From NCBI GenBank assembly GCA_005878515.1, contig VBLZ01000096.1:1-36171 (forward strand): a stretch of 36,171 nt of DNA. Direction: 5' to 3'. This document shows positions 1 to 17,100 of this stretch, piece by piece. The notes below the pieces were generated by a model. It searched no databases. It saw only the letters and a program-made list of their open reading frames with translations, and was not told where the DNA came from. Both the position numbers and the translations under genes were made by a program. The number at the start of each line of letters is the position of its first letter. Within the stretch, counting starts at the first letter, position 1. Origin of the DNA: Methanobacteriota archaeon. Lineage in GTDB: Archaea > Thermoplasmatota > Thermoplasmata > RBG-16-68-12.

Positions 1-1556
1 CCGACCATCGGGTCCGCACCGGTCCGGAAGACCTCCCGCTGGCGCTTCTCGTACACGTACATCTCCGTGATCGCGTGCTCCTTGCTCTCCTCGTCAATCG
101 CCATCTCGAGGTCCTTCATCGTGAGACCTTCCTTCTTCCGCTCCGTCTTCTTGAGCAGGATGACCCGCTTCACGAAGTTCTTCTTCGCGGTCGTCACGAT
201 CGCCTCGATGATGGCGCCGGAGATGATGTCCTTCCGCTTCACGGTCTTGATCGCCTCTTTCGCCTCGGCGTCGAGCTTGACCTTGACCCACTTATTCTCC
301 CCGTAGAGTTCATCGAGGACGAAGCGGCGCAGAGCGTCGACCGCCTCCTTGTGGCCTCCGTACATCTCGTCGAGGCTCTCCGCGGTCGGCAGGTCCTCGT
401 TCAGGTAGATCCGAAGGATCTCCTCCGCCGCCTTGCGGTCCGGACGCGGGATTTCGATGATCTCGTCGAAGCGCCCCGGCCTCAAGAGGGCCGGGTCCAC
501 GAGGTCCGCGCGGTTCGTCGCGCCGATCACGAAGACGTCGTGGAGCTCGACGAGTCCGTCCATCTCGCTCAGGATCTGCGCGATGATGTTCTTGTGGACG
601 CCGGATGTGTCCATCATGCCGCGGACCGTGAAGAGAGCCTCGATCTCGTCGAAGAAGACGATGCTCGGCTTCTTCTCGTGCGCCTGACGGAATATCTCCT
701 TGATGATGCGCTCGCTCTCCCCGACCCACTTCGAGAGGACGTCCGCGATGCTGACGTTGAAGAAGGTCATGTCGTTCTCCGTCGCGATCGCCTTCACGAG
801 CAGCGTCTTGCCGCAACCCGGGGGACCGTAGAGCAAGATCCCGCGCGGCGCCTGGAGGGAGATCTGCGCGAACAGCTTCGCCTCCTGGTACGGGAGCACG
901 ACGACGTCCTTGATGCGCTCGATCGCCTCCATGAGCCCGCCGATCTCGCCGTACGTCACGTTCGGCTTCTCGCCGAGGAGGAGGGACTTGACCTCGAGGT
1001 TCGGGAGGATGTCGAGGACCTCCATCGTCGGAGGCAGGACGCCGATCTGGAATCCGGGCTTGAGCTTCTTGAAGACGTTCTTGTCGCAATCGATCAGCCG
1101 CTTCTCCATGTCCCCTTCCACGGAGATCACGAGCTTGCCGTCCAGCATGTCGACGACCTTCGCGATCACGCCCTCGTTGCGCACCGCGCTGCCTTCCACG
1201 ATCGCGTACGTCTGCGGGTGCACCCAGACGTATTGGCCGACGCCGAGCTGCGACTTGTCGACCAAGCCGGTCGAGACCTTGAGCAGTTCGGTCGCGCGCG
1301 CGACGACAACCTGGTTCCCGTCGAGGTCGGGACCTTCCTTGCGGACGACGTACGCGTAGAGGAGCGGCGGTTGCTTGATCTTGTTGAACTTGTCCTCGTA
1401 GGCTTTCAGGCGGTACTCCCGTTCCTCGATCTCGTAGCGGAAGGAGTGAAGGTCGCGCTCGTACTGCCGACGGAGGCGATCCATCTTCTCCTCGAACTCG
1501 TCTCGGACTTCTTCCGCCGACTTCGACACCTTTCCGTCGCCCTCGTCACTCGCCAT
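1..1556 (-). CDS. AAA+ ATPase of the proteasome-activating nucleotidase (PAN / ARC-Mpa) type. The N-terminus is complete and the C-terminus runs off the left edge (at least 518 aa).
   Basis: It is absent from the supplied ORF track because there is no stop inside the window. Reverse-complement translation from the ATG at 1556-1554 gives MASDEGDGKVSKSAEEVRDEFEEKMDRLRRQYERDL..., a coiled-coil N-terminus. Two OB-like segments follow. Walker A is GPPGCGKT (nt 804-827), Walker B is IVFFDEIE (nt 639-662), and the second region of homology is ATNRADLVDPALLRPGRFD. The frame stays open to nt 1. Confidence 0.9.
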   Translation of the reverse strand, partial: MASDEGDGKVSKSAEEVRDEFEEKMDRLRRQYERDLHSFRYEIEEREYRLKAYEDKFNKIKQPPLLYAYVVRKEGPDLDGNQVVVARATELLKVSTGLVDKSQLGVGQYVWVHPQTYAIVEGSAVRNEGVIAKVVDMLDGKLVISVEGDMEKRLIDCDKNVFKKLKPGFQIGVLPPTMEVLDILPNLEVKSLLLGEKPNVTYGEIGGLMEAIERIKDVVVLPYQEAKLFAQISLQAPRGILLYGPPGCGKTLLVKAIATENDMTFFNVSIADVLSKWVGESERIIKEIFRQAHEKKPSIVFFDEIEALFTVRGMMDTSGVHKNIIAQILSEMDGLVELHDVFVIGATNRADLVDPALLRPGRFDEIIEIPRPDRKAAEEILRIYLNEDLPTAESLDEMYGGHKEAVDALRRFVLDELYGENKWVKVKLDAEAKEAIKTVKRKDIISGAIIEAIVTTAKKNFVKRVILLKKTERKKEGLTMKDLEMAIDEESKEHAITEMYVYEKRQREVFRTGADPMV

Positions 1557-1858
1557 TTTTGGATCACCGCGGGCTTGCGCACGCGAGTCGTTCAGGACGC
1601 GACGGCATCCGCTCTCGGGACGCGAGTCTGTGGAACAAGCTGCCGCCTCGTCCCATCCCTTGTTAGAAAGTGGCATCCGGAATTAAAGCTTTTGTTATCG
1701 GTACTGAAGATGGGACAATCCTGCGACGCGTGCGAAAATCGTCGCGTCCTCCCGGAGGAACGTGATCGCGCGTCGCGATTCGCACGCGGTTTCTTGTTGT
1801 AGCGAACGGACTCACAGAAATACAGAGCGCGCACGCTCGCATCGTGCGCCCGATGTCC

Positions 1859-4800
1859 TTACGTGTAGCTGCCCTGGATCAATTTCTTGATGTACGGGGT
1901 GAGGACCCGCGCGAGGCCCATGTCCCCGTCCCAGTCTTCGATCTGGTCCCAGTGATGATCTTCCATGTCCTTGATGCATCGCTCGATCTGGCTGGTCCAG
2001 CTCTGCGAGCCGTCGCCTTCGATCCGAGCCGCGAGCACGAGCCACTTGCCGCGGCCGATCAGGATGTGCATGTGGCCGACCGTCATCTCGTTTAGGTCGG
2101 CGTAGTCGTCCCCGCGGAGAGCGTCCTTGACGAACGCCTGCACCGCCGTGAGCATGCCGCTCAAGATGTCCGTGTCGACGTCGGGTCTGAGCCGTCGGGT
2201 CTCGTGCTTGATCAACAGGCCGTCCTTGTGATTGAGGAGGAACACATCCTCGAGGATCGCGTCGCTCGACTTCGCGGTCGTCGTTGGCGGCGGGGCGGCG
2301 GGCTTGGACGCCTCGGCCCCTCGTCGACGCAGGATGAGGAACGCGGCCGCGGCGACCGCCGCGCCGACGAGCACGAGGATCCACCAGAATTGCGCCAAGA
2401 CGCCCGGGGCGGTCGCGAATTGGAAGGTCTTCGACTGCACCATCGTGTTCCCGGCGAGATCGCGTGCGGTCGGATCGATCACGACGAAGTAGGTCGCTCC
2501 GGAATCGAGGTCGCGCGCCGGGACGAACGTCATGACGCGGGAATCCGAACTCCACAAGAATGCGCCGTCCATCGCGGGCGTGATCGAGAACGCGGCCTCG
2601 ACGGAGCTACGGTTCATGGGCTCGCTGAACGTCACGATGATCCAAGGCGTCAGGTTCGTGTTCGATCCGACGGGCCGAGAATCCGTCACGAACGGCGCCA
2701 AGACGTCAACAAGCGTCCACGTGTCGTTCGTCGCGGGAGCCGCTTCAACGTTCCCCGCGCGATCCCGCGCGATTGAACGGAAGGCATAGACATGGGCGCC
2801 TTGCCCCACGAATGTCGCGCCGGTCGCCGTCGTGTTCGTGTATCCCACGAGATCCGTCCAGGGATTCGTTCCATCTTTCCACTGAATGGCATATGCCGCG
2901 ATATCCGTCGTGCCGACGACGGGGCCCCATGCAATCGCGAATTGGAGGGCGTTCTCGTATCTCGGTAACGTCGTGACGGCGGAATCGGGTGGCGTGACGT
3001 CCACGATCGTCCACGACTCGTTTCCGGTCACCGTTTCGGTGTTCCCCGCGTGGTCCGTGGCGACCGAGCGGAACTGGTACGTGTGGCCATCCTGGCCGGT
3101 GAACGATCCCGAGGTCGTCGCAGCCGTCGCCACGAGCCAGTCCGTCCAGCCGGCCCCGTTGTCATTCACTTGAACGTGGTAGGTCGAGACGTCCGTCGTC
3201 CCCTCGGTCGGTCCCCAGTAGACGGTGAAGGAGAGGGAGGCTTCGTACCTCGGCAGGGCCAGCGTGCGGGAGGTCGGAGCGATCGTATCGACCATCGTCC
3301 ATGTGTCGTTCGATGCCGGGGGGACCTCGACGTTGCCCGCGGCGTCCGTGGCGATCGACCGGAAGGCGTAGATCCCTTGGCCCGAGGCCGTGAACGTCCC
3401 GGACGTCGCGGTCGTGCCGACGAGCCAGTTCGTCCAGCCGGCGGCTCCGGCATTGGATTGGATCGTGTAGGAGGCGATGTCCGTCACGCCCACATCCGGT
3501 CCCCAGGACACAAGGAACGCGCTCCGGTTTTGGTACTGGCTCAACGCATTCACATGGGAGCCCGGCCGGACCGTGTCGACGATCGTCCACGTATCGTTCG
3601 CGGACGGGCGGGATTCTCGGTTCCCCGCGGCATCCTCCGCCGTCGTGGCGAACTCGTACGCCCCGTCGGCCGACGCCGTGAACGAGAGGAAGCCGAAGTT
3701 CCCGCCAGGTTGGACGGAGTACTGAATCCAGATCGCGCTCCCGGCCGTCCGGTACCACAGGGTGATATTGGCCACCCCAGTCCCGTTCCCGTCCGAAGCG
3801 CTGTACGAGACCCAGAAGGTGAGCGTGTTCTCATACGTCGGCAAGGGGCTGGCCGCGGACGTCGGAGCGTCTTTGTCGACCATCCCGAACGATTCCGTGT
3901 GGCTGGTCCCCATGTTTACGGACCGCGGGTCGTTGGTGAACGCGTAAGGCGGGTACATCACGCTGACCTGGGTCACGTTGTCGGTCGGGACCGGCGAGTT
4001 CACGTAGATGCGGTCCGTGACGAGGATCCAGGATTGGATGCCGGAAGGGGCCGTGCGATCCCAGATCGTCGTGCTTCCGTCCGCGACCTTGATGTGGGCC
4101 CCGGCGACCGGCGTGAAGCCGTTCGGCCAGAGCGCGTCGACCTCGAGGAAGTTCCGGACGGTGAGATTTCCTGCGGCCATCACCGCGAGCTTCGTGAACG
4201 GACTGTTCACCGCAATCGCTTCCGTGTAGTTGTCCACATAGAACTCGTAGCTACCGATCGACGACAGCGTCGCGTTGTCAGCCGTGAAGTGGATCTTGGA
4301 CGTCTTGTTTCCGATGAGGTAGTATCCGTCCGCATAGGACGACTGAATCGGGGGGCCACTGCCCGATCCACCTTTCGTCACGCCCGAGATCGTATCCCCC
4401 GCGGAGAGGCCATTCAGGACGAGTCCCGAGATGACGCCGAACGCATCCCCGCCGCGGCCACCGTTCGTCCCGATGAGCGAGTCCCCGCCCCGGCCGCCTT
4501 GCATCGCGGTCACCCAGTTCGACGAGAAGCTCGGAGACGTGTACACGGCCGCGATCCCCGCGGCCGCGCCCCCGTTGCCGCCGAACCGCGTGCCGACGCC
4601 CCCGGCTCCGCCGGTGACGATATCCACTTGGTTGAAACTGGCCTGGGTGTTGTTGAATGCGCCGTCGTTGTTCCCGAAGAAGATGACTCCGGTCGCGTTG
4701 CCGCCGTACCCGCCGCGCAGGCCGCGGCCTCCGTCCCCGGCCGTCAGGGTCGTCAAGGTGTTGGCGTGGACCGTCGCCGGGCCTGCGACGTAGAAGACCG

Positions 4801-6235
4801 CGACCCCGTTCGCCGCGCCGCCGGTCCCGCCGTTCCCGGATCCTCCGCCGGCCACCGCTCCGTTTCCACCGATGCCGCCTCGGATGTTCTGGAGAACGTT
4901 ACCGCTCGCATCGACGTTTCGCGCACCGATCAGAAACACCGCGTCCGCGTCGCCGCCGGTGCCGCCGTTCCCGTTCGTCGTCCCACCGGTTCCACCGAGT
5001 CCCCCGCCGCCGCCGGACACTCCGTCGGCCGTGTTCGTGAATAATTGACTGGTTCCGATCGAATTCACCACTTCGATAGCGACGGCCGTCCCCGCGTCTC
5101 CGCCTCGGCCACCGGTCGTCGTCGTGGCGCTCCCGCCACCCGATCCCCCGTTTCCGCCCGTCATGGTCGTGACCGTGTTCCACTGGATCATGGGATTCGT
5201 CGTGCCGACGACGACAATGCCCGCGGCGGAACCCCCGTTGCCACCACGACCTCCCGTGCCTCCAGTGTTTGCCTGACCGTCGCCCCCACGTCCTCCGCTC
5301 ACGCTCTCGACTGCGTTGCTCGTGAGCGAGGCCGAGGGCGCCCCAGACACGTAGATCCCCACGCCGATCGTGCCATCACGCCCCGGAGCCCCCGGACCGA
5401 TCCCGGCAAGCCCTGGGGAGCCGCGGACACCCTGAACCGTGTTTCCGTCAATCGATGCGGTCGCCCCGCCCGTCACCAAGATGCCCATCGCGAAGCCACT
5501 ACTCACGTTCGTGATCCTGTTGCCCGACACCGTCGGGAAACCCGGCTGCTCGACCTGGATCCCGATCGCGGTGTTGTTGATCGCGTTGTTGGAAATCTGG
5601 ACGCTGGAGGCGTTCGCGTACACGCCCACGTTCGTCGCGCGGAGGATCGTGTTGCTCGAGACATAGCTCGATGACCGAAGAAACACGAATCCGGCTCCCG
5701 CCTGGATGATCTTGTTGCTAATGATGTCCGGAGAGCTGTCCGTCGCCGAGATCGCTCGGTCGACGCGATCGAACGTCGACCAGGAAACGGAGCCGGATGA
5801 GCTGGCGTTGAATTGGATGCCGCCCCACGGGGTTAGGGATGACGTGTTCGCGGCGAAGGTGATTGGTTTCGCCAGGGTCCCATCGGCTTTCAGCTGCCCG
5901 TCGACGAAGAGGTGCACGCCCGGATCGAACCTCACCGTCGTCCCGGGCATGATCGTCAGGGTCCAAGGAGCCCTGATCGTGACGGCACCCGTCGCGATGT
6001 AGAGAGTGTCGGCCACACCCCAGGTCACGTCCGTCGTGTACACGCCTCGGACGTACGTGGTGGCGCTCACGGTCGGGGCGCTGACGAGCAGGACCGCCCC
6101 GATCGACCCGAGGAGCGCGAGGGCCACCGCCACGCTTCTCATCGAGAACCGCGGGGGGTGGGTGCGCATGCGAGGCGGCGTCTCCCGGGCGAGGGCATTC
6201 CCCGGCCCAGTGCCGTCCACGTTCTCCGCTTCCAT
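1859..6235 (-). CDS. Large type-I membrane surface protein. It has a signal peptide, parallel beta-helix (PbH1/NosD-like) repeats, a Gly-rich GGxGG segment, four Ig/FN3-like repeats of ~97 aa, an SbsA-type Ig-like domain, one TM helix and a ~130-aa cytoplasmic alpha/beta domain.
   Basis: The ORF is 1,458 aa. PbH1-like text: ISNKIIQAGAGFVFLRSSSYVSSNTILRATNVGVYANASSVQISNNAINNTAIGIQV. Ig-like text: SEPMNRSSVEAAFSITP...VVIDPTARDLAGNTM. The TM helix is FWWILVLVGAAVAAAAFLILRRR (about nt 2326-2391). The signal-like segment MRSVAVALALLGSIGAVLLVSAPTVSA begins at internal Met32 (nt 6142), and Met23 is at nt 6169. The true start may therefore be 6169 or 6142 rather than 6235. Confidence 0.9.
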   Translation of the reverse strand: MEAENVDGTGPGNALARETPPRMRTHPPRFSMRSVAVALALLGSIGAVLLVSAPTVSATTYVRGVYTTDVTWGVADTLYIATGAVTIRAPWTLTIMPGTTVRFDPGVHLFVDGQLKADGTLAKPITFAANTSSLTPWGGIQFNASSSGSVSWSTFDRVDRAISATDSSPDIISNKIIQAGAGFVFLRSSSYVSSNTILRATNVGVYANASSVQISNNAINNTAIGIQVEQPGFPTVSGNRITNVSSGFAMGILVTGGATASIDGNTVQGVRGSPGLAGIGPGAPGRDGTIGVGIYVSGAPSASLTSNAVESVSGGRGGDGQANTGGTGGRGGNGGSAAGIVVVGTTNPMIQWNTVTTMTGGNGGSGGGSATTTTGGRGGDAGTAVAIEVVNSIGTSQLFTNTADGVSGGGGGLGGTGGTTNGNGGTGGDADAVFLIGARNVDASGNVLQNIRGGIGGNGAVAGGGSGNGGTGGAANGVAVFYVAGPATVHANTLTTLTAGDGGRGLRGGYGGNATGVIFFGNNDGAFNNTQASFNQVDIVTGGAGGVGTRFGGNGGAAAGIAAVYTSPSFSSNWVTAMQGGRGGDSLIGTNGGRGGDAFGVISGLVLNGLSAGDTISGVTKGGSGSGPPIQSSYADGYYLIGNKTSKIHFTADNATLSSIGSYEFYVDNYTEAIAVNSPFTKLAVMAAGNLTVRNFLEVDALWPNGFTPVAGAHIKVADGSTTIWDRTAPSGIQSWILVTDRIYVNSPVPTDNVTQVSVMYPPYAFTNDPRSVNMGTSHTESFGMVDKDAPTSAASPLPTYENTLTFWVSYSASDGNGTGVANITLWYRTAGSAIWIQYSVQPGGNFGFLSFTASADGAYEFATTAEDAAGNRESRPSANDTWTIVDTVRPGSHVNALSQYQNRSAFLVSWGPDVGVTDIASYTIQSNAGAAGWTNWLVGTTATSGTFTASGQGIYAFRSIATDAAGNVEVPPASNDTWTMVDTIAPTSRTLALPRYEASLSFTVYWGPTEGTTDVSTYHVQVNDNGAGWTDWLVATAATTSGSFTGQDGHTYQFRSVATDHAGNTETVTGNESWTIVDVTPPDSAVTTLPRYENALQFAIAWGPVVGTTDIAAYAIQWKDGTNPWTDLVGYTNTTATGATFVGQGAHVYAFRSIARDRAGNVEAAPATNDTWTLVDVLAPFVTDSRPVGSNTNLTPWIIVTFSEPMNRSSVEAAFSITPAMDGAFLWSSDSRVMTFVPARDLDSGATYFVVIDPTARDLAGNTMVQSKTFQFATAPGVLAQFWWILVLVGAAVAAAAFLILRRRGAEASKPAAPPPTTTAKSSDAILEDVFLLNHKDGLLIKHETRRLRPDVDTDILSGMLTAVQAFVKDALRGDDYADLNEMTVGHMHILIGRGKWLVLAARIEGDGSQSWTSQIERCIKDMEDHHWDQIEDWDGDMGLARVLTPYIKKLIQGSYT
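2709..3878 (-). repeat. Four tandem coding repeats of ~97 aa (Ig/FN3-like) inside the 1,458-aa protein.
   Basis: Each unit follows the pattern D(K/T/V)xxP(T/G/D)Sxx...LP(R/T)YE..L.F.V.WGP..G.TD...Y.IQ......W(T)(D/N)W......T...F.G..G..Y.FRS.A.D.AGN.E.....ND(T/S)WT(I/M/L)VD. Unit boundaries read DKDAPTS / DTVRPGS / DTIAPTS / DVTPPDS / DVLAPF. Confidence 0.8.
4430..5310 (-). repeat. Gly-rich degenerate coding repeats (GGxGGxGG turns alternating with short hydrophobic strands, about 45-50 aa per unit).
   Basis: The text runs SVSGGRGGDGQANTGGTGGRGGNGGSAAGIVVV...TGGNGGSGGGSATTTTGGRGGDAGTAVAIEVV...GGGGGLGGTGGTTNGNGGTGGDADAVFLIG...GGIGGNGAVAGGGSGNGGTGGAANGVAVFYV...GGRGGDSLIGTNGGRGGDAFGVISG. Confidence 0.75.
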
Positions 6236-6243
6236 ATATTACT
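6236..6243. promoter_or_regulatory. AT-rich TATA-like element (ATATATTA / TAATATAT) in the divergent region between the 1,458-aa gene and acd.
   Basis: This is the only AT-rich octamer in the 114-bp divergent intergenic region. It directly abuts the ATG at 6235. A TATA box should lie about 26 nt upstream of a transcription start, so this placement argues for a downstream start (6169 or 6142). Confidence 0.3.
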
Positions 6244-6349
6244 CAAATGTCGCCGTTATCCCGCGTGATACCGACTTCGCAACCGGATAACGGCCGCCGC
6301 ATCGGACGATGCGAGAACCTTCAAGCCGCGCCGAGGGTTTGGCCGCCCG

Positions 6350-8470
6350 ATGTCCCGCACGGGACTCGATGCGATCTTCTCGCCGTCGTCCATCGCGATC
6401 GTCGGCGCGTCCCGTCACCGCGGGAAAATCGGATACGAAATCCTTCGCAATCTCATCTTGAACGAGTACCAGGGGACGATTTATCCGGTGAATCCGAAGG
6501 CGACGAGCATCCACGGGATCCGTGCCTACCCGAGCGTCCTCGAGATCCCCGGCCCGGTGGACCTCGCGGTGATCACCGTACCCGCCGAGGTCGCGCTTCA
6601 AGCCGTCGAGGACTGCGGAAAGAAGGGGGTGAAAGGCCTCGTCGTGATCACCGCGGGCTTCCGAGAAATTGGCGACGTGGGAACGGACCGGGAGGCGCGG
6701 CTCCTCGCGGTTTGCGCGCAATACCGCATGACGATGATCGGCCCGAACTGCATGGGTGTGATCAACACCCATCCGGACATCCGCATGGATGCGACGTTCG
6801 CGCCGACGCCGCCGTTGCCCGGCGGAATCTCGCTCGCCACGCAGAGCGGCGCCCTCGGGATTGCGATCTTAGACCATGCGAAAACGCTTGGCGTCGGTTT
6901 CGCGAAGTTCTGCTCCTTAGGGAACAAGGCGCAGGTGAGCCTGAACGATCTCCTTGAGATGTGGCATGAGGACCCGGATACGAAACTCATCCTCGCGTAC
7001 ATCGAGAATTTCGGCAACCCGCAAAATTTCGTCCGGATCGCGCGCGAGACCACGAAGGACAAGCCCGTGATCGCCGTGAAGTCGGGTCGATCGGAGGCCG
7101 GAAGCCGCGCGGCGGTTTCGCACACCGGTTCCTTGGGGGGCTCGGACCTCGCGGCGGAAGCCGTGTTCTCCCAGACCGGCGTGCTGCGGGCGAACTCGAT
7201 CGAGGAGCTGTTCGACCTGGCGATGGCGTTCGCCTTGCAGCCCATCCCCCGAGGGGACCGCGTCGCGGTCGTCTCCGATGCGGGCGGCCCGGCAATCATG
7301 TGCGTCGATGAGCTGGTTGCCCAGGGCCTCCGGCTCGCGGAGCTGGCGCCGGCGACTCGGGCGGACATGAAGAAGTGGGCCCCTCCGGAAGCGTCGCTCC
7401 AGAACCCGATCGACCTGACCCCGCAAGGGAGCCTCGACGATTACCGCCGCGCGATGGACGCCGTCCTCGCGGATGGATCCGTCGACGCCGTGATCGCGAT
7501 CTACGTGCCGCCCGTACGCGTGGACGAAGTGGACGTCGCCCGCGCGATCTGGGAGATCGCCCGAAAACACTCGAAGCCGGTCTTGTGCAACTTCCTCGGA
7601 CGCGCCCAAGATAGTGCCGGCTTCGTCGAGCTCGTCACGCATGGCGTGCCCTCGTACTCGTATCCGGAGAGCGCTGCGCGGGCGCTCGCCGCGATGCACC
7701 GGTATGCCCGCTACCGGGACCGGGACGAGGGAGACCTTCGCACGTTCCCGGTCGATCGCGGCATTGCCGAATCCGTCTTGGCCCAGAGCAGGGCGGAGAA
7801 TCGAACGTTGTTGCGCGCCGAGGAGGCGAACCGCCTCCTGGAGACGTACGGGATTCGCACCGCGAAGACTCGGTTGGCACGCACCGTGGCGGATCTGCCG
7901 GCCACCGCGGCAGAAATCGGATACCCGGTCGTCCTGAAGGCGGTCGGCCCCGCTCTTGTGCACAAGTCCGAACTACAAGCGGTCCTGCTCGATGTCCGCG
8001 GGAAGGAGGACCTAGTCGAAGGGGCGTCACGCCTGGCCCGCCGCCTCCGGGACCGAGGCGTCACCATCGAGGGATTCCTGGTCCAAGAGTTCGTGACCGG
8101 TGGCACCGAGGTCCTCCTGGGCATGACCCGAGACAAGGTCTACGGGCCGTGCCTTGTCTTCGGACTCGGCGGCATCTATGTCGAATACCTGAAGGACGTT
8201 GCCTTCGGACTGCCGCCGTTGACCGATCGGGACGCGATGCGAATGATCGAATCGATCCGGACCTTCCCGCTGTTGAAAGGCGTGCGAGGCGAGCCTCCCC
8301 GAGACGTGAAGGCGTTGCAAGACGCCCTCCTGCGACTCGCCCAGCTCGTGTCGGATTCCGACCGGATCCAGGAGATCGATCTCAATCCGGTGATCGTCCT
8401 CCCGGAGGGAAAGGGTTACCGGGCCGTCGACGCCCGGATCGTGCTCGCGCCGGCCCCGCCGCGGGTCTAG
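6350..8470 (+). CDS. acd: Acetate--CoA ligase (ADP-forming), fused alpha/beta subunits.
   Basis: 706 aa. The CoA-binding N-terminus reads SIAIVGASRHRGKIGYEILRNL...YPVNP. The phosphohistidine loop is AVSHTGSLGGS. The C-terminal half is ATP-grasp-like (GYPVVLKAVGPALVHKSELQAV). Length and domain order match the fused archaeal ACD enzymes. Confidence 0.9.
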   Translation: MSRTGLDAIFSPSSIAIVGASRHRGKIGYEILRNLILNEYQGTIYPVNPKATSIHGIRAYPSVLEIPGPVDLAVITVPAEVALQAVEDCGKKGVKGLVVITAGFREIGDVGTDREARLLAVCAQYRMTMIGPNCMGVINTHPDIRMDATFAPTPPLPGGISLATQSGALGIAILDHAKTLGVGFAKFCSLGNKAQVSLNDLLEMWHEDPDTKLILAYIENFGNPQNFVRIARETTKDKPVIAVKSGRSEAGSRAAVSHTGSLGGSDLAAEAVFSQTGVLRANSIEELFDLAMAFALQPIPRGDRVAVVSDAGGPAIMCVDELVAQGLRLAELAPATRADMKKWAPPEASLQNPIDLTPQGSLDDYRRAMDAVLADGSVDAVIAIYVPPVRVDEVDVARAIWEIARKHSKPVLCNFLGRAQDSAGFVELVTHGVPSYSYPESAARALAAMHRYARYRDRDEGDLRTFPVDRGIAESVLAQSRAENRTLLRAEEANRLLETYGIRTAKTRLARTVADLPATAAEIGYPVVLKAVGPALVHKSELQAVLLDVRGKEDLVEGASRLARRLRDRGVTIEGFLVQEFVTGGTEVLLGMTRDKVYGPCLVFGLGGIYVEYLKDVAFGLPPLTDRDAMRMIESIRTFPLLKGVRGEPPRDVKALQDALLRLAQLVSDSDRIQEIDLNPVIVLPEGKGYRAVDARIVLAPAPPRV

Positions 8471-8868
8471 TCGCCGGGAACCGGGCCGCTCAACTCGATC
8501 CAAATCCCATCCGGATCTTCGACGTATGCGAGCATGCTCCCTCCTTCGGCGAAAGGAGGATGGCCGCTCCGCGCCCCTTTCGCGATCAGTTCGCGGTAGG
8601 CCCCCTCGACATCCGCGCACGCGAACGCGATGTGGTCCAGCTCGTCCCCGTTGCGATACGGGCCCGTGAAGAACTTCGAGCCGTCCGGATACCAGTTCAA
8701 CTCGAGCATCTGCTTGGACCCGGCACTGCGAAGCTCCGCCCATTCGCCGTCCGTCTCCGGAACGCGCTGACGGCGCACGACGCGCATCCCCAGGACATCC
8801 CGGTAGAAGGAAATCGAACGCTCCAAGTTCCGAACCTGAATCCCGACGTAGGCAAGTGTGTAGCGCAT
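8467..8868 (-). CDS. VOC-family protein (glyoxalase I / lactoylglutathione lyase-like).
   Basis: 133 aa. MRYTLAYVGIQVRNLERSISFYRDVLGM...LDHIAFACADVEGAYRELIAKG...YVEDPDGIWIEL is the typical paired beta-alpha-beta-beta-beta VOC pattern. Confidence 0.8.
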   Translation of the reverse strand: MRYTLAYVGIQVRNLERSISFYRDVLGMRVVRRQRVPETDGEWAELRSAGSKQMLELNWYPDGSKFFTGPYRNGDELDHIAFACADVEGAYRELIAKGARSGHPPFAEGGSMLAYVEDPDGIWIELSGPVPGD

Positions 8869-8961
8869 CGAACCGATCCGGGAGCGAAGGGCCGCCCATA
8901 AGCGATTTGCCGCCGGACGACGGCGCGTAACCCTTGTAGCCTCGCCCGCCTATGTCGGTCC

Positions 8962-8966
8962 GGAGG
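8962..8966 (+). promoter_or_regulatory. Shine-Dalgarno-like GGAGG, 5 nt upstream of the ACT-protein ATG.
   Basis: The sequence reads ccGGAGGgggacATG. Confidence 0.45.
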
Positions 8967-8971
8967 GGGAC

Positions 8972-9346
8972 ATGATCCAAATTGACTTGGAGGTCCCGGA
9001 CCGGCCGGGGGAGCTCGCGAAGCTCGCGGCGATCTTGGGAGATGCGGGCATCAACATCGACGCGATCGGCGCCGAGTCTGCGGGCGGGCGATCGTATGTG
9101 AGCCTGATCGTCAACCAGCCGATGCAGGCGCGGGAGGCGATGATGAAGAGCGGATACGCTTGCTCGACGCGGACCGTCCTCGTCGTCCGCCTGGACGACA
9201 AGCCGGGCGCGCTGGCCGCCCTCGCACGGAAGCTGGGAGACGCCGGAGTCGACGTCGTCAGCGCGATTCACCTCGGCACCGTGGGTGGTCATGCCCAGGT
9301 CGCTCTCGGGGTCGACAACTTGGAACGGGCGCGATCGTTGGTATGA
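8972..9346 (+). CDS. ACT domain-containing protein (two tandem ACT folds).
   Basis: 124 aa. Two copies of the ACT signature are present: IDLEVPDRPGELAKLAAILGDAGINIDAI and LVVRLDDKPGALAALARKLGDAGVDVVSAI. Confidence 0.8.
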   Translation: MIQIDLEVPDRPGELAKLAAILGDAGINIDAIGAESAGGRSYVSLIVNQPMQAREAMMKSGYACSTRTVLVVRLDDKPGALAALARKLGDAGVDVVSAIHLGTVGGHAQVALGVDNLERARSLV

Positions 9347-9428
9347 GCCCGAGAGGGACCGGAGGCTGAGTCGGTTCCCTCGATGCGTTCAGCGCCCCTT
9401 CTCACAACCGATAACCAAAGCCCGTTTC

Positions 9429-9436
9429 TTAAATAA
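9429..9436 (+). promoter_or_regulatory. Archaeal TATA-box candidate TTAAATAA (context cTTAAATAAgg).
   Basis: It is close to the TTTAWATA consensus and lies 43-50 nt upstream of the ATG at 9479. The same CTTAAATA(A)GG string recurs at 10963-10972. Confidence 0.4.
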
Positions 9437-9478
9437 GGAGCGGGCCGCTCGATTTCTCCGTACACGAACCGCGAGGCG

Positions 9479-10912
9479 ATGCCTCGCGACCTAGGCGGCC
9501 AGCGTATGCAAGGGGCGATCGAAGCTCTGCTTTCCGGTCTCGTACTCCGAGGCCTCGGCCCGGCCCTCTCGGGAATCCTGATGGCCGCTCCGCTGAAGAA
9601 AGTCGCCCGGGCGCAGCTCAAGAAGATCTACGTCCTCGATGAGCGCGGCGAGATGGCCGGGGAATACATCCTCGATCAGGATTGCCCGATCGACTACAAC
9701 GACTTCCTGAAGGTCTTGCCCGACGAAGGGATCGGCGACCGCGATTCCTTGTTCGTGGGCGAATATGTTTTCACGGCGTTCCAGAGCGGCAAGTTCGTGT
9801 TTGTCCTCCTGTCGCGCGGCCAACTCGCGCCCGAGGATGTCAACTGGACCGCCCTCCTCCTTACGGCCGCGGATTCGCATCTCGCGTCCGCGGTGAATCG
9901 TCCCGCACCCGCCCGTGCCGCCGAACCGAAACCGGACGTCGACAAGGGAATCGCGGAACGCGATGCGCGCCTCCAAGCGAAAGAGAAGTCCCTCGCCGAG
10001 CTCGAGGCGAAGCTCAAGGCGGATGCGGCGAACCTGAGTGGACGGCAGGAGGAGCTGGACCGCCAGAAGGCGAGGCTCGCGGCCCTCGCGGACTTTTCCA
10101 CGCAATTGCAGGATGCGGTGTCGAAGGGCGCCTCCCGGTCGGCGAAGACCCTGGAGATCGCGGAACAGCTCGCGACGAGCTCCAACGAGGATTCGAAGAA
10201 GGCCGAGTCGAAGGCCAGCTCGGACGCGCGACAAGCATTCGAGCAGGAGCGGAAAGCGCTCATCGCGGCGAAGACCGAACTCGAAACTCGCTACCAAGAG
10301 GCTTCTGCCCGAATCGCCCAACTCGAGAAGGAGGCGAAGGACTCGGTCGCCTTCCTCGAAAGGGAACGGGCGGAGACCGCGGTTCGGTCGGCGGAAGAAG
10401 AGAAGACCCGCCGCGAAATCGAGAGCCGGGTGGCCGACCTGAGTCAGCGTTTCACGTCAATGGCGAAAGAGCGGCTCGTGGCCTCGCATCGCCCCCCCGG
10501 CGAGGTCTCTGACGAGGTTCGGAAGGCGATGGAAGGCGAGAAAGCCGAGCTCGCGCGGGAGCGCAAGTTCCTCCAGCGTCGGGCGATCGAGCTCCTGGAC
10601 CGCGAGGAGCGGGTTCGGGACCGCGAAGCACGGGTCGAGGAACGAGACCGCGAATTCGGGCGACGGGACAAGGATCTCTCCGCCCGCGAAGAGGATCTAG
10701 ACCGGCAACGGACGCTCCTCGCGCAAGCAAAGCCGCAGGCGCCCGAGATCCGCGCCGAACCGGACGAAGCGAAGAAAGACATCGAGCGGCGCGTGAAGAT
10801 CATCCAGCAGAAGGCGCTGGAGCTGCTGGACCGGGAGGAAAAACTGCGGAGGCGCGCGGCGGAGCTCGAGGCGATGGAGTCCCGGCTCTCCGGAAGGGTG
10901 ACGGTCGAGTGA
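9479..10912 (+). CDS. Coiled-coil protein with an N-terminal hydrophobic segment and a juxtamembrane-type alpha/beta module. It appears paralogous to the cytoplasmic tail of the downstream giant protein.
   Basis: 477 aa. The N-terminus is AIEALLSGLVLRGLGPALSGILMAAPL followed by the basic stretch KKVARAQLKK. The module KIYVLDERGEMAGEYILDQDCPIDYND...FVFVLLSRGQLAPEDV spans nt 9620-9900. About 330 aa of E/R/A/K/L-rich sequence follow. Two copies of the motif (K/R)(F/I)(L/I)Q+(K/R)A.(E/D)(L/V)LD(R/Q)EE+(L/I/V)R lie at nt 10562-10621 and 10790-10852. An alternative start is the ATG at 9506. Confidence 0.85.
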   Translation: MPRDLGGQRMQGAIEALLSGLVLRGLGPALSGILMAAPLKKVARAQLKKIYVLDERGEMAGEYILDQDCPIDYNDFLKVLPDEGIGDRDSLFVGEYVFTAFQSGKFVFVLLSRGQLAPEDVNWTALLLTAADSHLASAVNRPAPARAAEPKPDVDKGIAERDARLQAKEKSLAELEAKLKADAANLSGRQEELDRQKARLAALADFSTQLQDAVSKGASRSAKTLEIAEQLATSSNEDSKKAESKASSDARQAFEQERKALIAAKTELETRYQEASARIAQLEKEAKDSVAFLERERAETAVRSAEEEKTRREIESRVADLSQRFTSMAKERLVASHRPPGEVSDEVRKAMEGEKAELARERKFLQRRAIELLDREERVRDREARVEERDREFGRRDKDLSAREEDLDRQRTLLAQAKPQAPEIRAEPDEAKKDIERRVKIIQQKALELLDREEKLRRRAAELEAMESRLSGRVTVE

Positions 10913-10963
10913 AGCGGCTTCCCTCCCAGAAAGAAATCAGGTCAGATAACCACCAAACGGCGC

Positions 10964-10970
10964 TTAAATA
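10964..10970 (+). promoter_or_regulatory. TATA-box candidate TTAAATA (context cTTAAATAgg), about 205 nt upstream of the giant ORF.
   Basis: It shares a 10-nt core with the element at 9428-9438. No other AT-rich box lies between 10913 and 11175. Confidence 0.25.
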
Positions 10971-11175
10971 GGTCCGAACGGAACCCGCTGTAACCCCACG
11001 CAGACGCTCGTCAGAGTCGTGACGGCTTGAACGTCTCATGTGCAGAACTGCCAGGTTCCAACTACGACGTCGCACGAGGTGACTCAACCGGAATCCCCCG
11101 GCCTTCCGCTGCGTCGGTGAGCGGTACCGCCGCTCCGTCCAACCACTCCCTCCCGGAACGCGCCGTGGTGTTTTC

Positions 11176-14100
11176 GTGAAGGCGCGAACCGCGTTCCTCG
11201 TCGCCTTCGTCATGCTTGCAACCGCCGCCCTGGTGGTCGTCAGCCAGTCGATGCCCGACCCGCTCGCGAAGTTCAGGACTCCCGACGGTCGGCTCACGAT
11301 TCCGGGCCGTGCGTTGACCCCGGAACTGCAACGGCTGCTGTTCCATGGCAATGACCTGCAGCCTCTCACCAATGTCACCTTCCTTCTCCCGGTGCGATCT
11401 TCGTATCCGACGGAGCGCCTCGTCGCCATCTCATTCGCGTCTCCAAATCTCAACGTCTTGGTTCATCCGCGGCAAGCGCCGGAAACGTGGGGCAGCGCCA
11501 TCGATCACGTCCTCCGAGTGTGGTTCCCTCCCGTCGACTGGCACGAGGTGGCAGTCGGATTCCGAAACTCGATCCGGGACGGCGTTGGGTGGTTTTTCGA
11601 TCTCTTCACGATGAACGCCAAGGCCGACGCATTGACGGTCGATTCGACGACCGTCGCAGTCGTCGACCCCGCCGCGGCAACCTGCACGACCTCCCAATCG
11701 GCGGCCGCGGGCGACAACGCGGTACTCGTGATGCTCAGCAATCGCGGGCCCACCGCGTACGCGAGCGTCACGTACGGCTCGGTCAGCCTGAGCCTGATCC
11801 CCGGGACCGCCACGAGCGGCACCGGAATCGTGCGCTCGGAGATGTGGTTTTACCAAGGCGCGATTCCAGGCGGCGCTCAAACGATGACGGCCACCCTCGT
11901 GAGTGGCACCGCGAAACAAGTGTGTGCCACGGTCCTCTTAGGGGGAGTCTTGGCCGCGACCCCGACCGCAGGGGGAACCGCGGCGAGCGGGACGACTGCG
12001 AATCCGAACATCTCGATCTCCCCGGCATCCGCCGGTGAACTGGCCTTCGCGGTCCTGGGGATCCGAGGGACCACGGCACCGACGGCCGTCACCGGCACGG
12101 GGGCCACCGCGACGTCTCTCTATGGAATCGCGCCGACTCAGTGCGCCGCCGCGCCCAATAGTTTTTGCGGCGCGGGGGCCGACATGCCCTTCCCCGGGAC
12201 GGCAATCACGTGGACGGACGGCAACGCCACCGACTGGGTCATCTCCGCGGTTCGCGTGTTGCCCACCCCGAACTGCGGCGTTGCGTCGGGGAACTGCTAT
12301 CGGATCGGCGCGGGTGGGACGTGGGCCACGGGTGCGAACTGGTCGAACACGTCCGGCGGGGCGGCGTGCGGCTGCACGCCCGTTGCGACGAACGATGTGA
12401 TCTTCAATGCCACCCCCACCGGCACCACGACCCTTGCGGCAGCCACGACGATCGCGAGCATCGACATGACGGGCTTCACCGGCACGCTCGATACGACCGC
12501 ATCCAACTGGGCGCTCACCGTCAACGGTCCATTCGCCATTCAGGGGACGTTCCAGGCTCGGAGTTCGACGATTACGATCACCGGGGACGTCGACGTGCTC
12601 ACCGCGGCGACGATCATCAATCTCGGCGCATCGAGCTGGACGGTCAACGGCCTGTGGACCAACCTATCGACCTCCGCCTCGTGGGCCGCGGGGACGAGCA
12701 CGGTGACGATTCGAGATGCGACAAGCGGGACGCTCACATTCGCGGCACTGGCTGGCGGAGCGAACGAGTTCAACAATCTCACGCTGGATGCCAGCGTGAC
12801 TACGAGCATCACGTACACGATGGCAGTAAACCCGTTGAGGATGGGAGCGACCCTCACGATCCGCAACTCGACCGGCGGGGCGACGGGACCGACTATCTTG
12901 ACGACATCGGCGTCGAACTTCGGCATCACCGCGGGGGCGCTCGCCATTGCGACCTTCGGAAGCTTGACCGCGAACGGGTCGGCCATTGCGTTCAACGGCA
13001 ACGTGAACGTCAGCGCGGCGAACGGCTACGTCGTCATGGGTACGTCGGCATGGACCGTCACGGGGACCTGGACGAACGCGTCGACGTCCGCCTCGTGGAA
13101 CCCCGGGACCGGTACGGTCACGTTCACGAGCGCGACCGGCGGGACGATGACGTTCGCCGGGACGAATCTTCCGGGCAACGAGTTCAACAATGTTTCTTTC
13201 AACTCCTCGGCGGCGTCCGTCCAGACGTTCACGATGGCGACAAGGGCCCTCATCTGGGGCGGGACGCTCACGATCTCGGACGGTTCCTCGACGACGGCGC
13301 TCGCAACGGCCAATCTCGGCCTGACTGGCGGCGCACTCAGCGTCGGCAACGGCGGTATCCTCACCGCTAACGCTTCCACGGTAACCGTGTCGAGCGTGGC
13401 GATGACCGGGGGAACGAGCGGAACGATCACGCTCACGACCGGCTCGTTCACCAGCAGCGGCAACTGGGACACGAGCGGAGCCGGCTCCGTGTTCACGAAG
13501 GGCACGAGCACGGTGACGATGAGCGGTGTCGCCAACATCGCCATTCTGAACGCGAGCAACAACTTCAACAGCCTCGTCATCTCGGCGGCGGGAACGGTCA
13601 CCCAAACCGGCCTCGTGGACGTCTCCGGGACCTTGACGGTGAATGCCGGCTCAATCCTCGCGAGCGGCACCTTCACGCTGACCGTGGCCACCCTCGCAGC
13701 GAACATGGCGGGTGGAATCACCGGGGGGGCGGCGGGCACGAAGACGATCACCGGCAATGTCAGCATCGCCGCCTCGGGATACTTCGGCTTCGGTGCGACG
13801 ACTTGGAACTTCGGCGGTTCGTGGACGAACTCGTCGACGAGCGGATCGTGGTCCGCCGGAACGGGGACGGTCGTCTTCAACTCCGGCTCGTCTCGCACGA
13901 TGACCTTCGCCAACTTGGGAGTCTCTGAGTTCAACAACGTGCAGTTCGGCCCTACCGCCGCCGCGACGTTCACTATGGCGACGAACGGCCTCCGATGGGG
14001 AGGCACGTTGACCCTCAACAACAATGCGACCCTTTCGACCACGAACCTCGCGTTGACGGGCCCGGGAGGAAACCTCACGGTGAACAACGGGGCCACCTTG

Positions 14101-17100
14101 ACGGCGGGCACGTCCGCCGTGAGTGTGACCAACGTGGCGATGACCGGCGGAGTCTCCGGGACGATCACGGCCTCGGGCTCATGGACCGTCGCAGGGAACT
14201 GGGACACGTCCGGAGGGGGCTCCGTCCTCACGGCGGCTTCGAGCACCGTCACGATGAGCGGAGCCGCGAAGACCGTCAAGATCCTGAACGCCTCCAACGG
14301 CTTCGGCGCACTCACGATCAGCGGCACCGTCACCGCGGCATCGGCGATCACCCTGGCCGGCCTCCTGACGGTCAGCGGCACCTTCGACACGACCGCGACT
14401 AACTACGGCCTGTCCGTCGGCGGCGGCCTGACGGTCAGCAGTGCCACGGGGGTCTTCCGGTCAAACGGATCGACCGTCTCGGTGGCCGGGAATGTTTCCG
14501 TGAACAATGCGGGCGGCTACATCACGTCAGGCGGCGCCGGTTCGTGGACCGCCTCCGGATCCTGGACAAACGCGTCCACATCCGCGTCCTGGAATTTCGC
14601 GTCTCCCATCATGTTCAACTCATCGGCCTCCCAGACGATGACCTTCGCCGTCCTCCCGGGAGCTGCCTCCGAGTTCACCGACATCGCCTTCAACAGCGGC
14701 GCGTCGACCGTCACGTTCACCATGGCGGCGAACCGCCTCATTTGGTCGGGGACCTTGTCGGTCCAGGGTGGGGCCGGAGCGACGACCCTCGCGACGAGCA
14801 ACCTGGCCCTCACCGGCGGCGCACTCACCCTCGGCAACGGGGGTGTGCTGACCGCGAATGCATCGGCAGTCAGTGTATCGAACGTCGCGATGACCGGCGG
14901 TACCTCGGGCACGCTGACGCTGACCACCGGCGCGTGGACCGTGACCGGGATCTGGGACACCTCCGGCGCAGGATCGACATTCGCAGCCGGATCGAGCACC
15001 GTCACCATGACCGGAGCGGGCACGACCGTCAAGATCTTGGACTCGTCGAACGGGTTCGCCGCTCTCACCGTTAGCGGCACTCTCTCCGCGGCATCGGCCC
15101 TCACAACGGCGGGACTCGTCACCGTGAGCGGCACGCTCGACACGACGGGCGCGAACTACGGCCTCACGATCGGCGGCGGACTCACCGTCAGCGGTGCGAC
15201 CGGGGTCCTTCGCGCGAACGCCTCGATTGTCTCCGTCGCCGGGAACGTGAATATCAACAGCGCCACGGGCTACATCACGTCGACGGCCGGCGGTTCTTGG
15301 ACCGCGTCCGGATCATGGACGAACTCCTCGACATCGGCCTCGTGGAGCTTCGTCGCCCCGATCACCTTCAACTCCTCGGCCTCACGAACAATGACATTCG
15401 GCAACCCGACCCTGGAGTTCGCCGGGAACGTCACGTTCAACTCCGGCGCCTCGACGGTCACGTTCACGATGGCGGCGAACAGCCTGGACGTCGGCGGGAC
15501 GCTCACGATAGCGGGCGGAGCCGGCACGACGACGCTGAACACGAGTGGTTCAAACCTCGCGATCAACCCGGCCACACTGGTCGTGAACGCGGGAGGAGCC
15601 CTCACGGCCAACGGGTCCATCATCACGGTTACCTCGATGGATACCCATCTCGGGACATTCACGGTCGGCGCCTCGACCGTCGTCGTGAACGCGTCGGGCG
15701 GCTCCATTAACGTCACGCAGACGGTCAACAATCTCACGGTCACACCCGCCGTCTCGACGACGTTCACAGGATCTCTCACATGGACAGGAACGCTCGCCTT
15801 CACGAACGCCGGGAGCGTCGCATTCGGAACGAACAGCCTGACCTCGAGTGGCGCCGCGACCTTCACGTTCGCGTCGGCAACGATCACGATGAGCTCGGGG
15901 AACTGGGATACGTCTTCGGCCACGACCTTCACGGCGACGAGTTCGACGGTCACGTTCTCAGGGACGGGGAACCTTCGAGTCGGGGGAAGCGCCTCCTTCG
16001 GCGCGCTCACGGTCAGCGGCGGCACCCGGACCCTCCAGAGCCAACTCACGACGTCGGGACTGCTGACCCTTTCGGGCGGCACCCTCGCCAAGGGGACGAA
16101 CGCGCTCACCGCCAACGCCGGGATCACGATGTCGGGCGGCGCGCTCACCTCCACGTCCGGTGCGGTCAGCATCACCGGCAATGTATCGATCGCGGCCGCG
16201 TCCTACATCGTCTTCGGTTCCGAGACTTGGACCGTGAGTGGCTCGTGGACGGACAATTCCACGTCGGCGAGTTGGTCGATTGGAACCGCGACCGTGGCCT
16301 TCAACGCGTCCTCGGCGCAGACGATGACGTTCGCGGCGCTCCCGGGGAACGCACCCGAGTTTTACAACGTGACCTTCAACAGTGGCGCGTCAACGGTCAC
16401 ACTCACGATGACGACGAACGCGCTGGCTTGGTCGGGAATCCTCACGGTCCAAGGAGGGGGCGGGGCGACGACGCTCGCCACGAGCAATCTCGGACTCACC
16501 GGAGGCGCCATCGTCGTCGGCAATGCGGGAGTCCTCGCCGCGAACGCCTCCGCGGTGTCGATATCCGGATTGACGATGATTGGAGGGACCAGCGGCACGT
16601 TGACGCTGACGACCGGTTCATGGGCCGTCTCCGGCAACTGGAACACCAGCGGGGCGGGCTCGGCATTCTCGAAGGGAACATCGACGGTCACCTTCACCGG
16701 GGCCGGGCAGACGGTATCCATCCTCAACGCTTCGAACGGGTTCTACAACCTCGCCGTCTCGGGGACCGTCACCCAGTCCACCGCCATCGATGTGACGAAT
16801 TCCTTGACGGTGAGCGGAACTCTGACCACCGGAGGGTTCAACATTACGGGCGGTTCGAACCTCTCCGTCCCGGATGGTGGCACCCTGGCGGCAGGCACCT
16901 CGACGTCCACGTTCACGAACGTCACGATGACCGGCTCGATCTCAGGCACGATCACCCTGACGGGCGCATGGACGGTCAGCGGTTCTTGGGACAGCACCGG
17001 GGCAGGCTCGGTTCTGAACCCCGGGACATCGACCGTGACGTTTACCGGGACCTCGCAGACAATCAGCCTCGCGGCGGGCCAGACGTTCTACAATCTCACA

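Follow-up and report, generated by a model that had tools for sequence, protein, structure and literature searches.

A paralogue of the cytoplasmic tail of a giant surface protein is encoded next to it in uncultured Thermoplasmata: candidate partner subunits of a membrane-attached coiled-coil scaffold

Two adjacent genes, herein referred to as mini and giant, were analyzed within a stretch of 36,171 nucleotides from a Methanobacteriota archaeon of the class Thermoplasmata (contig VBLZ01000096.1; hereafter the window), and the mini protein was found to be a genuine paralogue, without ectodomain, of the cytoplasmic tail of the giant protein. The two proteins are proposed, with a probability of about 0.5, to act together as subunits of a coiled-coil scaffold attached to the membrane, which would amount to a membrane skeleton, and this reading is supported by the strict pairing of the two genes, the shared promoter element, the constraint on module, tail length and motifs, and the predicted topology. 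Gene pairs of this kind, referred to below as type-1/type-2 pairs, belong to a clade of uncultured soil and sediment Thermoplasmata. The family is rare and undescribed: a profile search of 1.84 billion representative proteins returned 100 relatives at E <= 1e-3, and no description of the family was found by full-text searches of the literature, in which a survey of ESCRT proteins mentions Thermoplasmata and does not cover the family.

A sequence-only reading of the same DNA had proposed that mini repeats the layout of the giant tail, with a hydrophobic N-terminal segment followed by basic residues, a membrane-adjacent module, a charged coiled coil and a pair of C-terminal motifs. Both open reading frames (ORFs) are present as claimed, mini with 477 amino acids (aa) and giant with 4428 aa. 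The features of the two genes are as follows.

9479 to 10912, forward strand: mini gene, 477 aa as counted from the first ATG, taken from the list of ORFs
9512 to 9592, forward strand: weakly hydrophobic N-terminal segment of mini (aa 12-38), then KK..R..KK; putative membrane association
9614 to 9898, forward strand: type-1 longin/Roadblock-like module of mini (aa 46-140), from AlphaFold2, Foldseek and homology to the giant module
9935 to 10909, forward strand: coiled-coil region of mini (aa 153-477), from heptad power relative to shuffles
10568 to 10618, forward strand: C-terminal motif 1 of mini, FLQRRAIELLDREERVR, from aa 364
10799 to 10849, forward strand: C-terminal motif 2 of mini, IIQQKALELLDREEKLR, from aa 441
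11176 to 24462, forward strand: giant gene, 4428 aa, predicted type-I membrane protein, from the ORF and homologues of the same layout
11188 to 11244, forward strand: signal or anchor helix at the N-terminus of giant (aa 5-23), Kyte-Doolittle 2.46, Hessa -1.5 kcal/mol
11248 to 20205, forward strand: predicted extracellular domain of giant (aa 25-3010), T/G/S/A-rich and repetitive
20218 to 20283, forward strand: predicted transmembrane helix of giant (aa 3015-3036), Kyte-Doolittle 2.07, then QRQRWRPAK
20296 to 20580, forward strand: type-2 longin/Roadblock-like module of giant (aa 3041-3135), from homology to the mini module, family search and tree
20581 to 24459, forward strand: predicted cytoplasmic coiled coil of giant, about 1290 aa, from heptad power and proline count
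24073 to 24123, forward strand: C-terminal motif 1 of giant, FLQKKALDVLDQEEKIR, from aa 4300
24358 to 24408, forward strand: C-terminal motif 2 of giant, IIQKKAMDLLDREEKLR, from aa 4395

Homology between the mini protein and the giant tail

Since composition alone can bring charged coiled coils into alignment, shuffled sequences, internal windows of the giant coil and reversed profiles were used as controls, and family profiles were made from 25 mini sequences and from 20 giant tails of related genomes. By BLASTP of mini against the last 1428 residues of giant, the C-termini were aligned with E = 1e-12, the two motif copies were cross-matched with E = 7e-9, and the N-terminal parts, from the hydrophobic segment through the globular module, were aligned with E = 2e-6. 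The module alone (mini aa 40-140 against giant aa 3041-3140) gave a Smith-Waterman score of 79 and a BLASTP E-value of 2.6e-8 at an identity of only about 25%. Shuffled sequences gave 24.7 +/- 4.4 in the same comparison, so that the observed score corresponds to z = 12.3, and none of 2000 shuffles reached it. In hhalign, the module profiles of the two families matched with a probability of 95.3% and E = 2.4e-8, compared with 1.1% and E = 0.05 for the reversed control. The identities counted earlier between the two proteins, 8 of 24 and 7 of 14 residues, were recounted from the sequences and are correct.

The C-terminal similarity was stronger. The last 137 residues of mini aligned to the last 160 residues of giant with a Smith-Waterman score of 230, as compared with 70-116 for 160-aa windows of the giant coil not overlapping the last 160 residues, 149-200 for overlapping windows, and 58 +/- 8.7 for shuffles (z = 19.7). 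In profile alignment by hhalign of the mini family against the giant-tail family, the C-terminal parts matched with a probability of 99.6% and E = 1.2e-24, and the N-terminal parts with E = 3e-11, while the best E-value with the reversed mini alignment was 9e-5, the background level of coiled coils. The similarity thus exceeds the compositional bias of coiled coils in both the shuffled controls and the profile alignments. These sequence comparisons altogether show mini and the giant tail to be homologous along the whole common layout of putative anchor with basic residues, module, coil and split motif pair.

The motif pair is a family motif, [FI][LI]Q.[KR]A.[ED].LD[RQ]EE..R, present in duplicate with a helix break between the copies in both mini and giant, and it hardly varies in either paralogue within the clade, in contrast to the diverging coils. 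At motif 2, 18 of 26 residues are identical between mini and giant, and the DNA is identical at 62 of 78 positions with synonymous differences. Gene conversion as the origin of the motif identity is ruled out by these synonymous differences, and the conservation is therefore attributed, from sequence, to selection. The motif pair was also found in short soluble and in medium membrane-anchored relatives and, being present in both clades of the family (see below), is probably ancestral to it. In one related locus (L030; mini 58-1485, giant 1532-10474), motif 2 carries Phe in both proteins (KAFELLD and KAFDLLD) at the position of Leu or Met in most other genomes. In another locus (L035), Phe is found in motif 2 of giant only.

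The mini protein

The mini family is conserved, with 187 homologues from metagenome-assembled genomes of Thermoplasmata, typically of 465-469 aa (range 460-469) and 58-94% identical. Most of the aligned homologues begin at the residue matching M10, and the true start of mini is therefore probably the ATG at 9506, giving a protein of 468 aa.

With respect to the N-terminal layout, the basic residues after the segment were confirmed, while a firm membrane-proximal anchor was not supported. The segment is weakly hydrophobic, with a Kyte-Doolittle maximum of 1.56 and a summed Hessa free energy of +4.7 kcal/mol (family range +2.2 to +8.5), as compared with +0.96 kcal/mol for the membrane helix of giant and -1.5 kcal/mol for its signal helix. 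An Arg in the middle of the segment (R24) is conserved together with Gly and Pro. A membrane-associating segment is plausible from these values; a transmembrane helix is not established.

The charged coiled coil of about 330 aa claimed for mini is borne out by the power of the 3.5-residue periodicity, which was 0.64 for mini and 0.72 for the giant tail as compared with 0.22-0.24 for shuffles (0.24 for those of mini). The coil of mini is interrupted twice, by SHRPPGE at 336-342 and by a P-rich linker at 419-428, both of them conserved helix breaks, the linker separating the two C-terminal motifs of mini as the SGGP break (4374-4377), in the stretch between motifs 1 and 2 of giant, separates those of the giant protein.

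The giant protein

The ectodomain of giant, of about 2990 aa, consists of T, G, S and A by 56% and contains eight W[TS][ND]xS[TS]SxSW motifs with a spacing of mostly about 250 aa (range 138-579). It had no Pfam match, and a PDB sequence search with an ectodomain segment gave nothing meaningful. N-x-S/T sequons number 69 in the ectodomain and three in the tail, and basic residues are located C-terminal to the membrane helix; the tail is therefore predicted to lie in the cytoplasm and the ectodomain outside. The coil of the tail contains three prolines in 1289 residues and, at the rise of about 0.15 nm per residue assumed for a coiled coil, would form a rod of about 190 nm if continuous. Growth of the coil by recent duplication was ruled out, because no internal repeats were detected by self-BLAST of the protein and no tandem repeats in the DNA.

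The tail is 1406-1414 aa in length in 10 of 20 giant homologues, whereas ectodomains of about 750 to 3260 aa, variable in sequence, occur across lineages. In several lineages (loci L063, L018, L019, L025, L029, L030, L035 and L061), the N-terminal part of the ectodomain is replaced by unrelated sequence. Because the length of the tail is nearly fixed while the ectodomain varies in length or is swapped, the cytoplasmic half appears from these sequences to be the constant part of giant and the surface half the variable part. In one locus (L001, 11674-21407, on a contig shared with L042), the giant gene is split into an N-terminal piece of 479 aa, about 2.5 kilobases (kb) with seven small ORFs on the opposite strand, and a remainder of 3771 aa, which looks like an insertion into the gene.

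Predicted fold of the module

A model of the module was built with AlphaFold2 from an alignment of 65 sequences (A4) out of an exhaustive profile search, and reached a predicted local distance difference test score (pLDDT) of 87.5 and a predicted TM-score (pTM) of 0.76, with the order beta-beta-alpha-beta-beta-beta-alpha (strands 7-14 and 20-25, helix 34-40, strands 51-54, 57-64 and 67-74, helix 79-100). An earlier prediction from a shallow alignment of two subfamilies, with pLDDT 52.5, was excluded from the fold search. The leading matches of the model in a Foldseek search against the PDB were all longin or Roadblock domains, including the N-terminal domain of AP2 mu2, TRAPP Bet5, LAMTOR, dynein LC7, MglC and zeta-COP, and further a Streptomyces Roadblock protein, Sec22b and Ykt6. 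The query TM-scores of the leading matches were 0.5-0.6, that of the AP2 mu2 domain being 0.57-0.60 with a root mean square deviation of about 3.3 A.

Sequence libraries gave no such assignment. Searches of Pfam, NCBIfam and PHROGs with both proteins, the isolated modules and the 65 module sequences returned nothing specific, the only matches being sub-threshold ones to SMC, RNase Y and FlbB over the coil. Pfam gave no longin match for the proteins or the 65 module sequences, except for one Fuz_longin_1 match at E = 0.21, taken as noise, and no match of the module to PF03259 (Roadblock/LC7). PDB sequence searches with the module profile and the C-terminal profile also gave nothing meaningful. 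In the model, no helix precedes the first strand, which opens six residues past the basic stretch, and the helix after the last strand runs into the coil; for these two reasons the predicted topology is closer to longin than to Roadblock. As modelled, the module is longin/Roadblock-like in fold and a member of neither family.

Architectural classes and the tree of modules

Homologues obtained by a second search with the giant module as query were mostly frameshifted fragments at the level of reads, and the giant tails were thus taken from the genome scan with the C-terminal alignment (see below). Six architectural classes were distinguished in the family.

Giant: about 2300 to 4767 aa, of common layout, counted as stop-to-stop ORFs or full-length proteins
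Mini: 465-469 aa
Short soluble: 300-360 aa, with N-terminal module and C-terminal motif pair
Medium: membrane helix, almost without ectodomain
Soluble long-coil: starting with MFGKKL
Micro: 223-259 aa, module and about 80 aa of coil, without the motif pair

The neighbour-joining tree of the modules separated two deep clades, type 1 with the micro, mini and short soluble forms, and type 2 with the MFGKKL soluble long-coil proteins, the medium membrane-anchored proteins and the giants. The nearest relatives of mini are short soluble type-1 proteins, and those of giant are type-2 membrane-anchored proteins with little or no ectodomain (P0173, P0211, P0217 and P0225). The suggestion that mini represents the ancestral unit from which giant arose found no support. 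Because the modules split into these two deep clades, mini is taken to be a sister-clade partner of giant, neither its ancestor nor its recent copy, and giant most likely arose, as judged from the tree, from an ectodomain-poor type-2 protein by gain and expansion of the extracellular part.

Conserved pairing of the genes

A scan of genomes, one per species, with the C-terminal alignment as query identified 70 loci, among which 69 were labelled Thermoplasmata, Methanomassiliicoccales or unclassified Euryarchaeota/Methanobacteriota. The other one (L009), a contig of 4.7 kb with the C-terminus of giant, is labelled 'Nitrospirae bacterium NS_1' and is probably mis-binned. All 26 loci with 1.5 kb or more of sequence past the mini gene have, directly after mini, an ORF of at least 400 aa in the same orientation, which carries an N-terminal signal or anchor in 25 of them, and the type-2 module and tail were found in the downstream gene wherever the sequence of the locus extends far enough. 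The pairing of mini and giant is thus conserved in related genomes.

In two distant lineages (L070 and L071), about 5 kb separates a short type-1 gene from a type-2 gene of the medium form with membrane anchor. Between the two genes of L070, a surface protein of 1636 aa is encoded (8466-13376, reverse strand), which lacks a coil and ends with a membrane helix and RRRPIIESAFLIDQTGRVRCEF; the latter is similar to strands 1 and 2 of the module (63% probability in hhalign, across 26 residues).

In most relatives, a third paralogue, micro, is located directly upstream of mini (for example, 9191-9862 in L001 and 9105-9884 in L003). The micro gene is absent from the corresponding part of the window (9347-9478) and from the closest relatives (L046, L048, L049, L050, L052, L055 and L067), all of which would have lost it, as judged from this distribution.

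The genes around the mini-giant pair in the window, which has a G+C content of about 65%, are metabolic or housekeeping genes, and no GTPase gene was found in the window or in the related loci examined. An ORF of 421 aa (8027-9292, reverse strand) has no family match and is probably spurious, because it overlaps real genes for a glyoxalase (8467-8868, reverse strand) and an ACT protein (8972-9346, forward strand). A surface protein of 1458 aa with NosD and Big_5 domains (1859-6235, reverse strand) has a second membrane helix (aa 1283-1303), after which comes a conserved domain in the cytoplasm, about 150 aa in length, whose sequence pattern looks, by eye, like beta-beta-alpha-beta-beta-beta-alpha. 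This domain was tried as a relative of the module and gave no significant match (hhalign probability 4%).

Promoters and the giant leader

Each of the two genes is preceded by a copy of the same promoter element.

9410 to 9435, forward strand: promoter module of mini, GATAACC-N11-CTTAAATA, with a TATA-like box at 9428-9435
10945 to 10970, forward strand: promoter module of giant, GATAACC-N11-CTTAAATA, about 35 nucleotides past the stop codon of mini

The pattern GATAACC-N11-CTTAWATA matches the 36-kb window at these two positions only, as compared with zero matches expected from shuffles, and the two YTTAWATA boxes of the window are both within the two modules. Among the fetched loci, some of which lie on one contig, 21 carry the element in front of both genes, the copy of mini being unchanged in position, and 35 carry it in front of one gene or more; it never occurred more than twice per locus, and none was located before the micro gene. 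The region between mini and giant has diverged except for the promoter island at 10945-10970. GATAACC may be the site of a transcription factor, and mini and giant probably respond to the same factor, as suggested by the shared element.

Giant is thus predicted to have its own promoter, with a leader of about 190 nucleotides. Obligatory co-transcription of mini and giant is unsupported, a separate promoter being conserved before each gene. Read-through from mini into giant is possible, because no terminator-like site was found between the two genes on the forward strand. Within the leader, a block at about 11001-11035 of the window, CAGACGCTCGTCAGAGTCGTGACGGCTTGAACG, is conserved even in distant relatives (L056 and L051). 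RNAalifold gave no supported structure for the leader (-10.6 kcal/mol, with an unfavourable covariation term), and no Rfam family was found across 9300-11300.

A possible membrane-attached scaffold and its alternatives

If mini and giant are partner subunits, giant would span the membrane and tie the variable, glycosylated surface domain to the long cytoplasmic rod, and two modes of contact between the proteins are conceivable. The longin/Roadblock-like modules of the two types would bind each other as heterotypic pairs on the cytoplasmic side of the membrane, with micro, where present, as a further partner at the level of the module. Alternatively or in addition, the near-identical C-terminal motif pairs would bind each other, and mini would then pin or cap the distal end of the giant rod at the membrane. 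With both contacts made, the giant rod should lie along the membrane as in a sub-membrane lattice, because the fourfold difference in coil length forbids register at both ends. Longin and Roadblock domains are typically homo- or heterodimers, as known for LAMTOR2/3, MglB and Mon1-Ccz1. The dimeric habit of this fold class makes a hetero-oligomeric partner or capping role of mini plausible at the level of the model, and the near-identical motif pair argues for a shared interface. A bolder version, in which the locus is the core of an unseen archaeal membrane skeleton, giant coupling an exchangeable surface coat to the rod of about 190 nm and type-1 proteins locking on through heterotypic modules and the rod-end motif to form a sub-membrane lattice, should be regarded as doubtful.

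Several observations weigh against the partner-subunit reading. The coils differ fourfold in length, leaving mini and giant out of register at one end at least, and a parallel homodimeric coil would favour homotypic pairs of modules. Only a single possible co-variation between the motifs of mini and giant was seen, the shared Phe of L030. The role of mini in pinning the rod to the membrane is uncertain, because its anchor is weak and the short type-1 forms lack a hydrophobic N-terminal segment. In Foldseek, the best E-value of the module is a weak 2.9e-3, and its link to the longin or Roadblock families is backed by no sequence profile. In addition, all sources of the family are metagenome-assembled genomes.

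In another reading, mini and giant would form separate homodimeric coils that make no mutual contact, and the shared motif pair would bind one further component common to both, for example a hub protein, the nucleoid or the division machinery, with mini acting as a shorter tether or as a competitor that tunes the capture by giant. The near residue-for-residue conservation of the motifs across paralogues and relatives fits an external ligand equally well, each of the two coils (about 330 and 1290 aa) is kept within a narrow range of lengths, as for spacers of set reach, and the two genes have separate promoters. No candidate for such a component was found, however, among the metabolic and housekeeping genes of the neighbourhood, and the strict adjacency of type-1 and type-2 genes is more typical of subunits of one complex; we consider this alternative possible, if rather unlikely. 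The fold class of the module raises another possibility, a signalling or polarity device instead of a skeleton, in which the modules recruit or regulate a small GTPase, as do MglB, Ragulator, TRAPP and the SRP receptor, and the coils serve as golgin-like spacers. Longin and Roadblock domains commonly bind small GTPases, and all classes of the family have the module immediately next to the membrane. Such a platform is nevertheless improbable in view of the lack of a GTPase gene in the window and the related loci examined, the lack of longin or Roadblock membership of the module at the sequence level, and the near-fixed length of the 1290-aa coil, which is unusual for a GTPase regulator.

Two further explanations are effectively refuted. 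The adjacency, co-orientation and shared layout of the genes could suggest that mini is a truncated or decaying copy of the 3' end of giant without function, but the modules are only about 25% identical and fall into two deep clades, the mini family keeps its identity and narrow length range over 187 proteins, the motif DNA differs synonymously, and mini has a conserved promoter of its own; a recent partial duplicate is thus most improbable. Even less credit is given to an artefact of the shared charged-coil composition. Coil-to-coil alignments do reach E-values around 1e-4 even with reversed mini, and the weak matches to SMC and CRWN_N reflect the bias of the coil, but the globular module alone reaches z = 12 and its profile E-value is far below that of the reversed control, and the C-terminus of mini scores about twice or more the values for non-overlapping windows of the same giant coil (230 against 70-116). 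With these alternatives weighed, partner subunits of a membrane-attached scaffold remain the reading that we prefer.

Comparison with known systems

By the defining traits that were tested, the mini/giant family is assigned to none of the known systems compared herein. The longin SNAREs and the Roadblock proteins come closest in fold and in the way domain, coil and anchor are combined, and the nearest in overall shape are the golgins, intermediate-filament-like proteins and the linkers between surface and skeleton of eukaryotes.

The longin proteins (Sec22b, Ykt6, VAMP7, the N-terminal domains of adaptor mu and sigma subunits, zeta-COP, TRAPP Bet5 and Trs23, and SRX) have the same beta-beta-alpha-beta-beta-beta-alpha fold as predicted for the module, and the longin SNAREs carry, as this family does, the domain, a heptad coil and a membrane anchor on one polypeptide. 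In the longin SNAREs, however, the transmembrane helix is C-terminal and the coil is about 60 aa in length, whereas here the putative anchor is N-terminal with the module directly after it and the coil is 330-1290 aa. No synaptobrevin or SNARE match in Pfam was found for either protein, and this family belongs to Thermoplasmata instead of to eukaryotes or Asgard archaea. The Roadblock/LC7 proteins (MglB, MglC, LAMTOR2/3, dynein LC7 and the C-terminal domains of Rag proteins) are of the same fold class by Foldseek, and their homo- and heterodimers suggest a way for type-1 and type-2 modules to pair. They differ in having an N-terminal helix before the first strand, which the module model lacks, and the known prokaryotic Roadblock proteins are small and stand-alone, whereas the module shares one chain with a membrane anchor and a long coil.

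Golgins such as giantin resemble giant in having one membrane anchor and a cytoplasmic coil of hundreds to thousands of residues, but are tail-anchored without ectodomain, bind Rab or Arl GTPases and are unrelated in sequence, while giant has an ectodomain of about 3000 aa. The intermediate-filament-like proteins (crescentin, FilP and Scy of bacteria; lamins; plant CRWN) share the long heptad rod. Intermediate filaments have conserved motifs at the ends of the rod, of which the rod-end motifs of mini and giant are reminiscent; these families lack the membrane span, the ectodomain and the longin-like domain. Precomputed matches to PF27881 (CRWN) are weak or faint and most likely reflect coil composition; the Pfam scan gave no PF27881 match, though this family is possibly missing from the Pfam copy used. 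Membership of the SMC family was rejected, since the NCBIfam matches reach 13-42 bits against cut-offs of 567-729, cover the coil only and include no ATPase head or hinge. As in the LINC complex (nesprins with SUN proteins) and the spectrin skeleton, giant joins an outer layer to an inner rod, and giant and mini versions coexist; this likeness is pure analogy, with different folds and no homology.

To our knowledge, archaeal cytoskeletal and membrane-skeleton proteins outside the actin, tubulin and ESCRT families are little described, and, as far as we know, the question of how the shape and the surface coat of wall-less Thermoplasmata are maintained is not settled. The family described herein would be a concrete candidate for this role, with a surface giant, a cytoplasmic rod of fixed length, paralogous partners and a shared promoter. 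It also defines a domain family that is new, together with a C-terminal motif of diagnostic value and a promoter element, each of which can be searched for and tested. If the scaffold reading is true, a membrane skeleton would lie under the membrane of wall-less or S-layer-only Thermoplasmata as a prokaryotic counterpart of the eukaryotic surface-skeleton linkers. It would also be an independent, non-Asgard case in which a longin-like domain, a coiled coil and a membrane anchor occur together, and would add a new architecture in Thermoplasmata to the longin/Roadblock fold class, which is known best from trafficking in eukaryotes and from the regulators of small GTPases.

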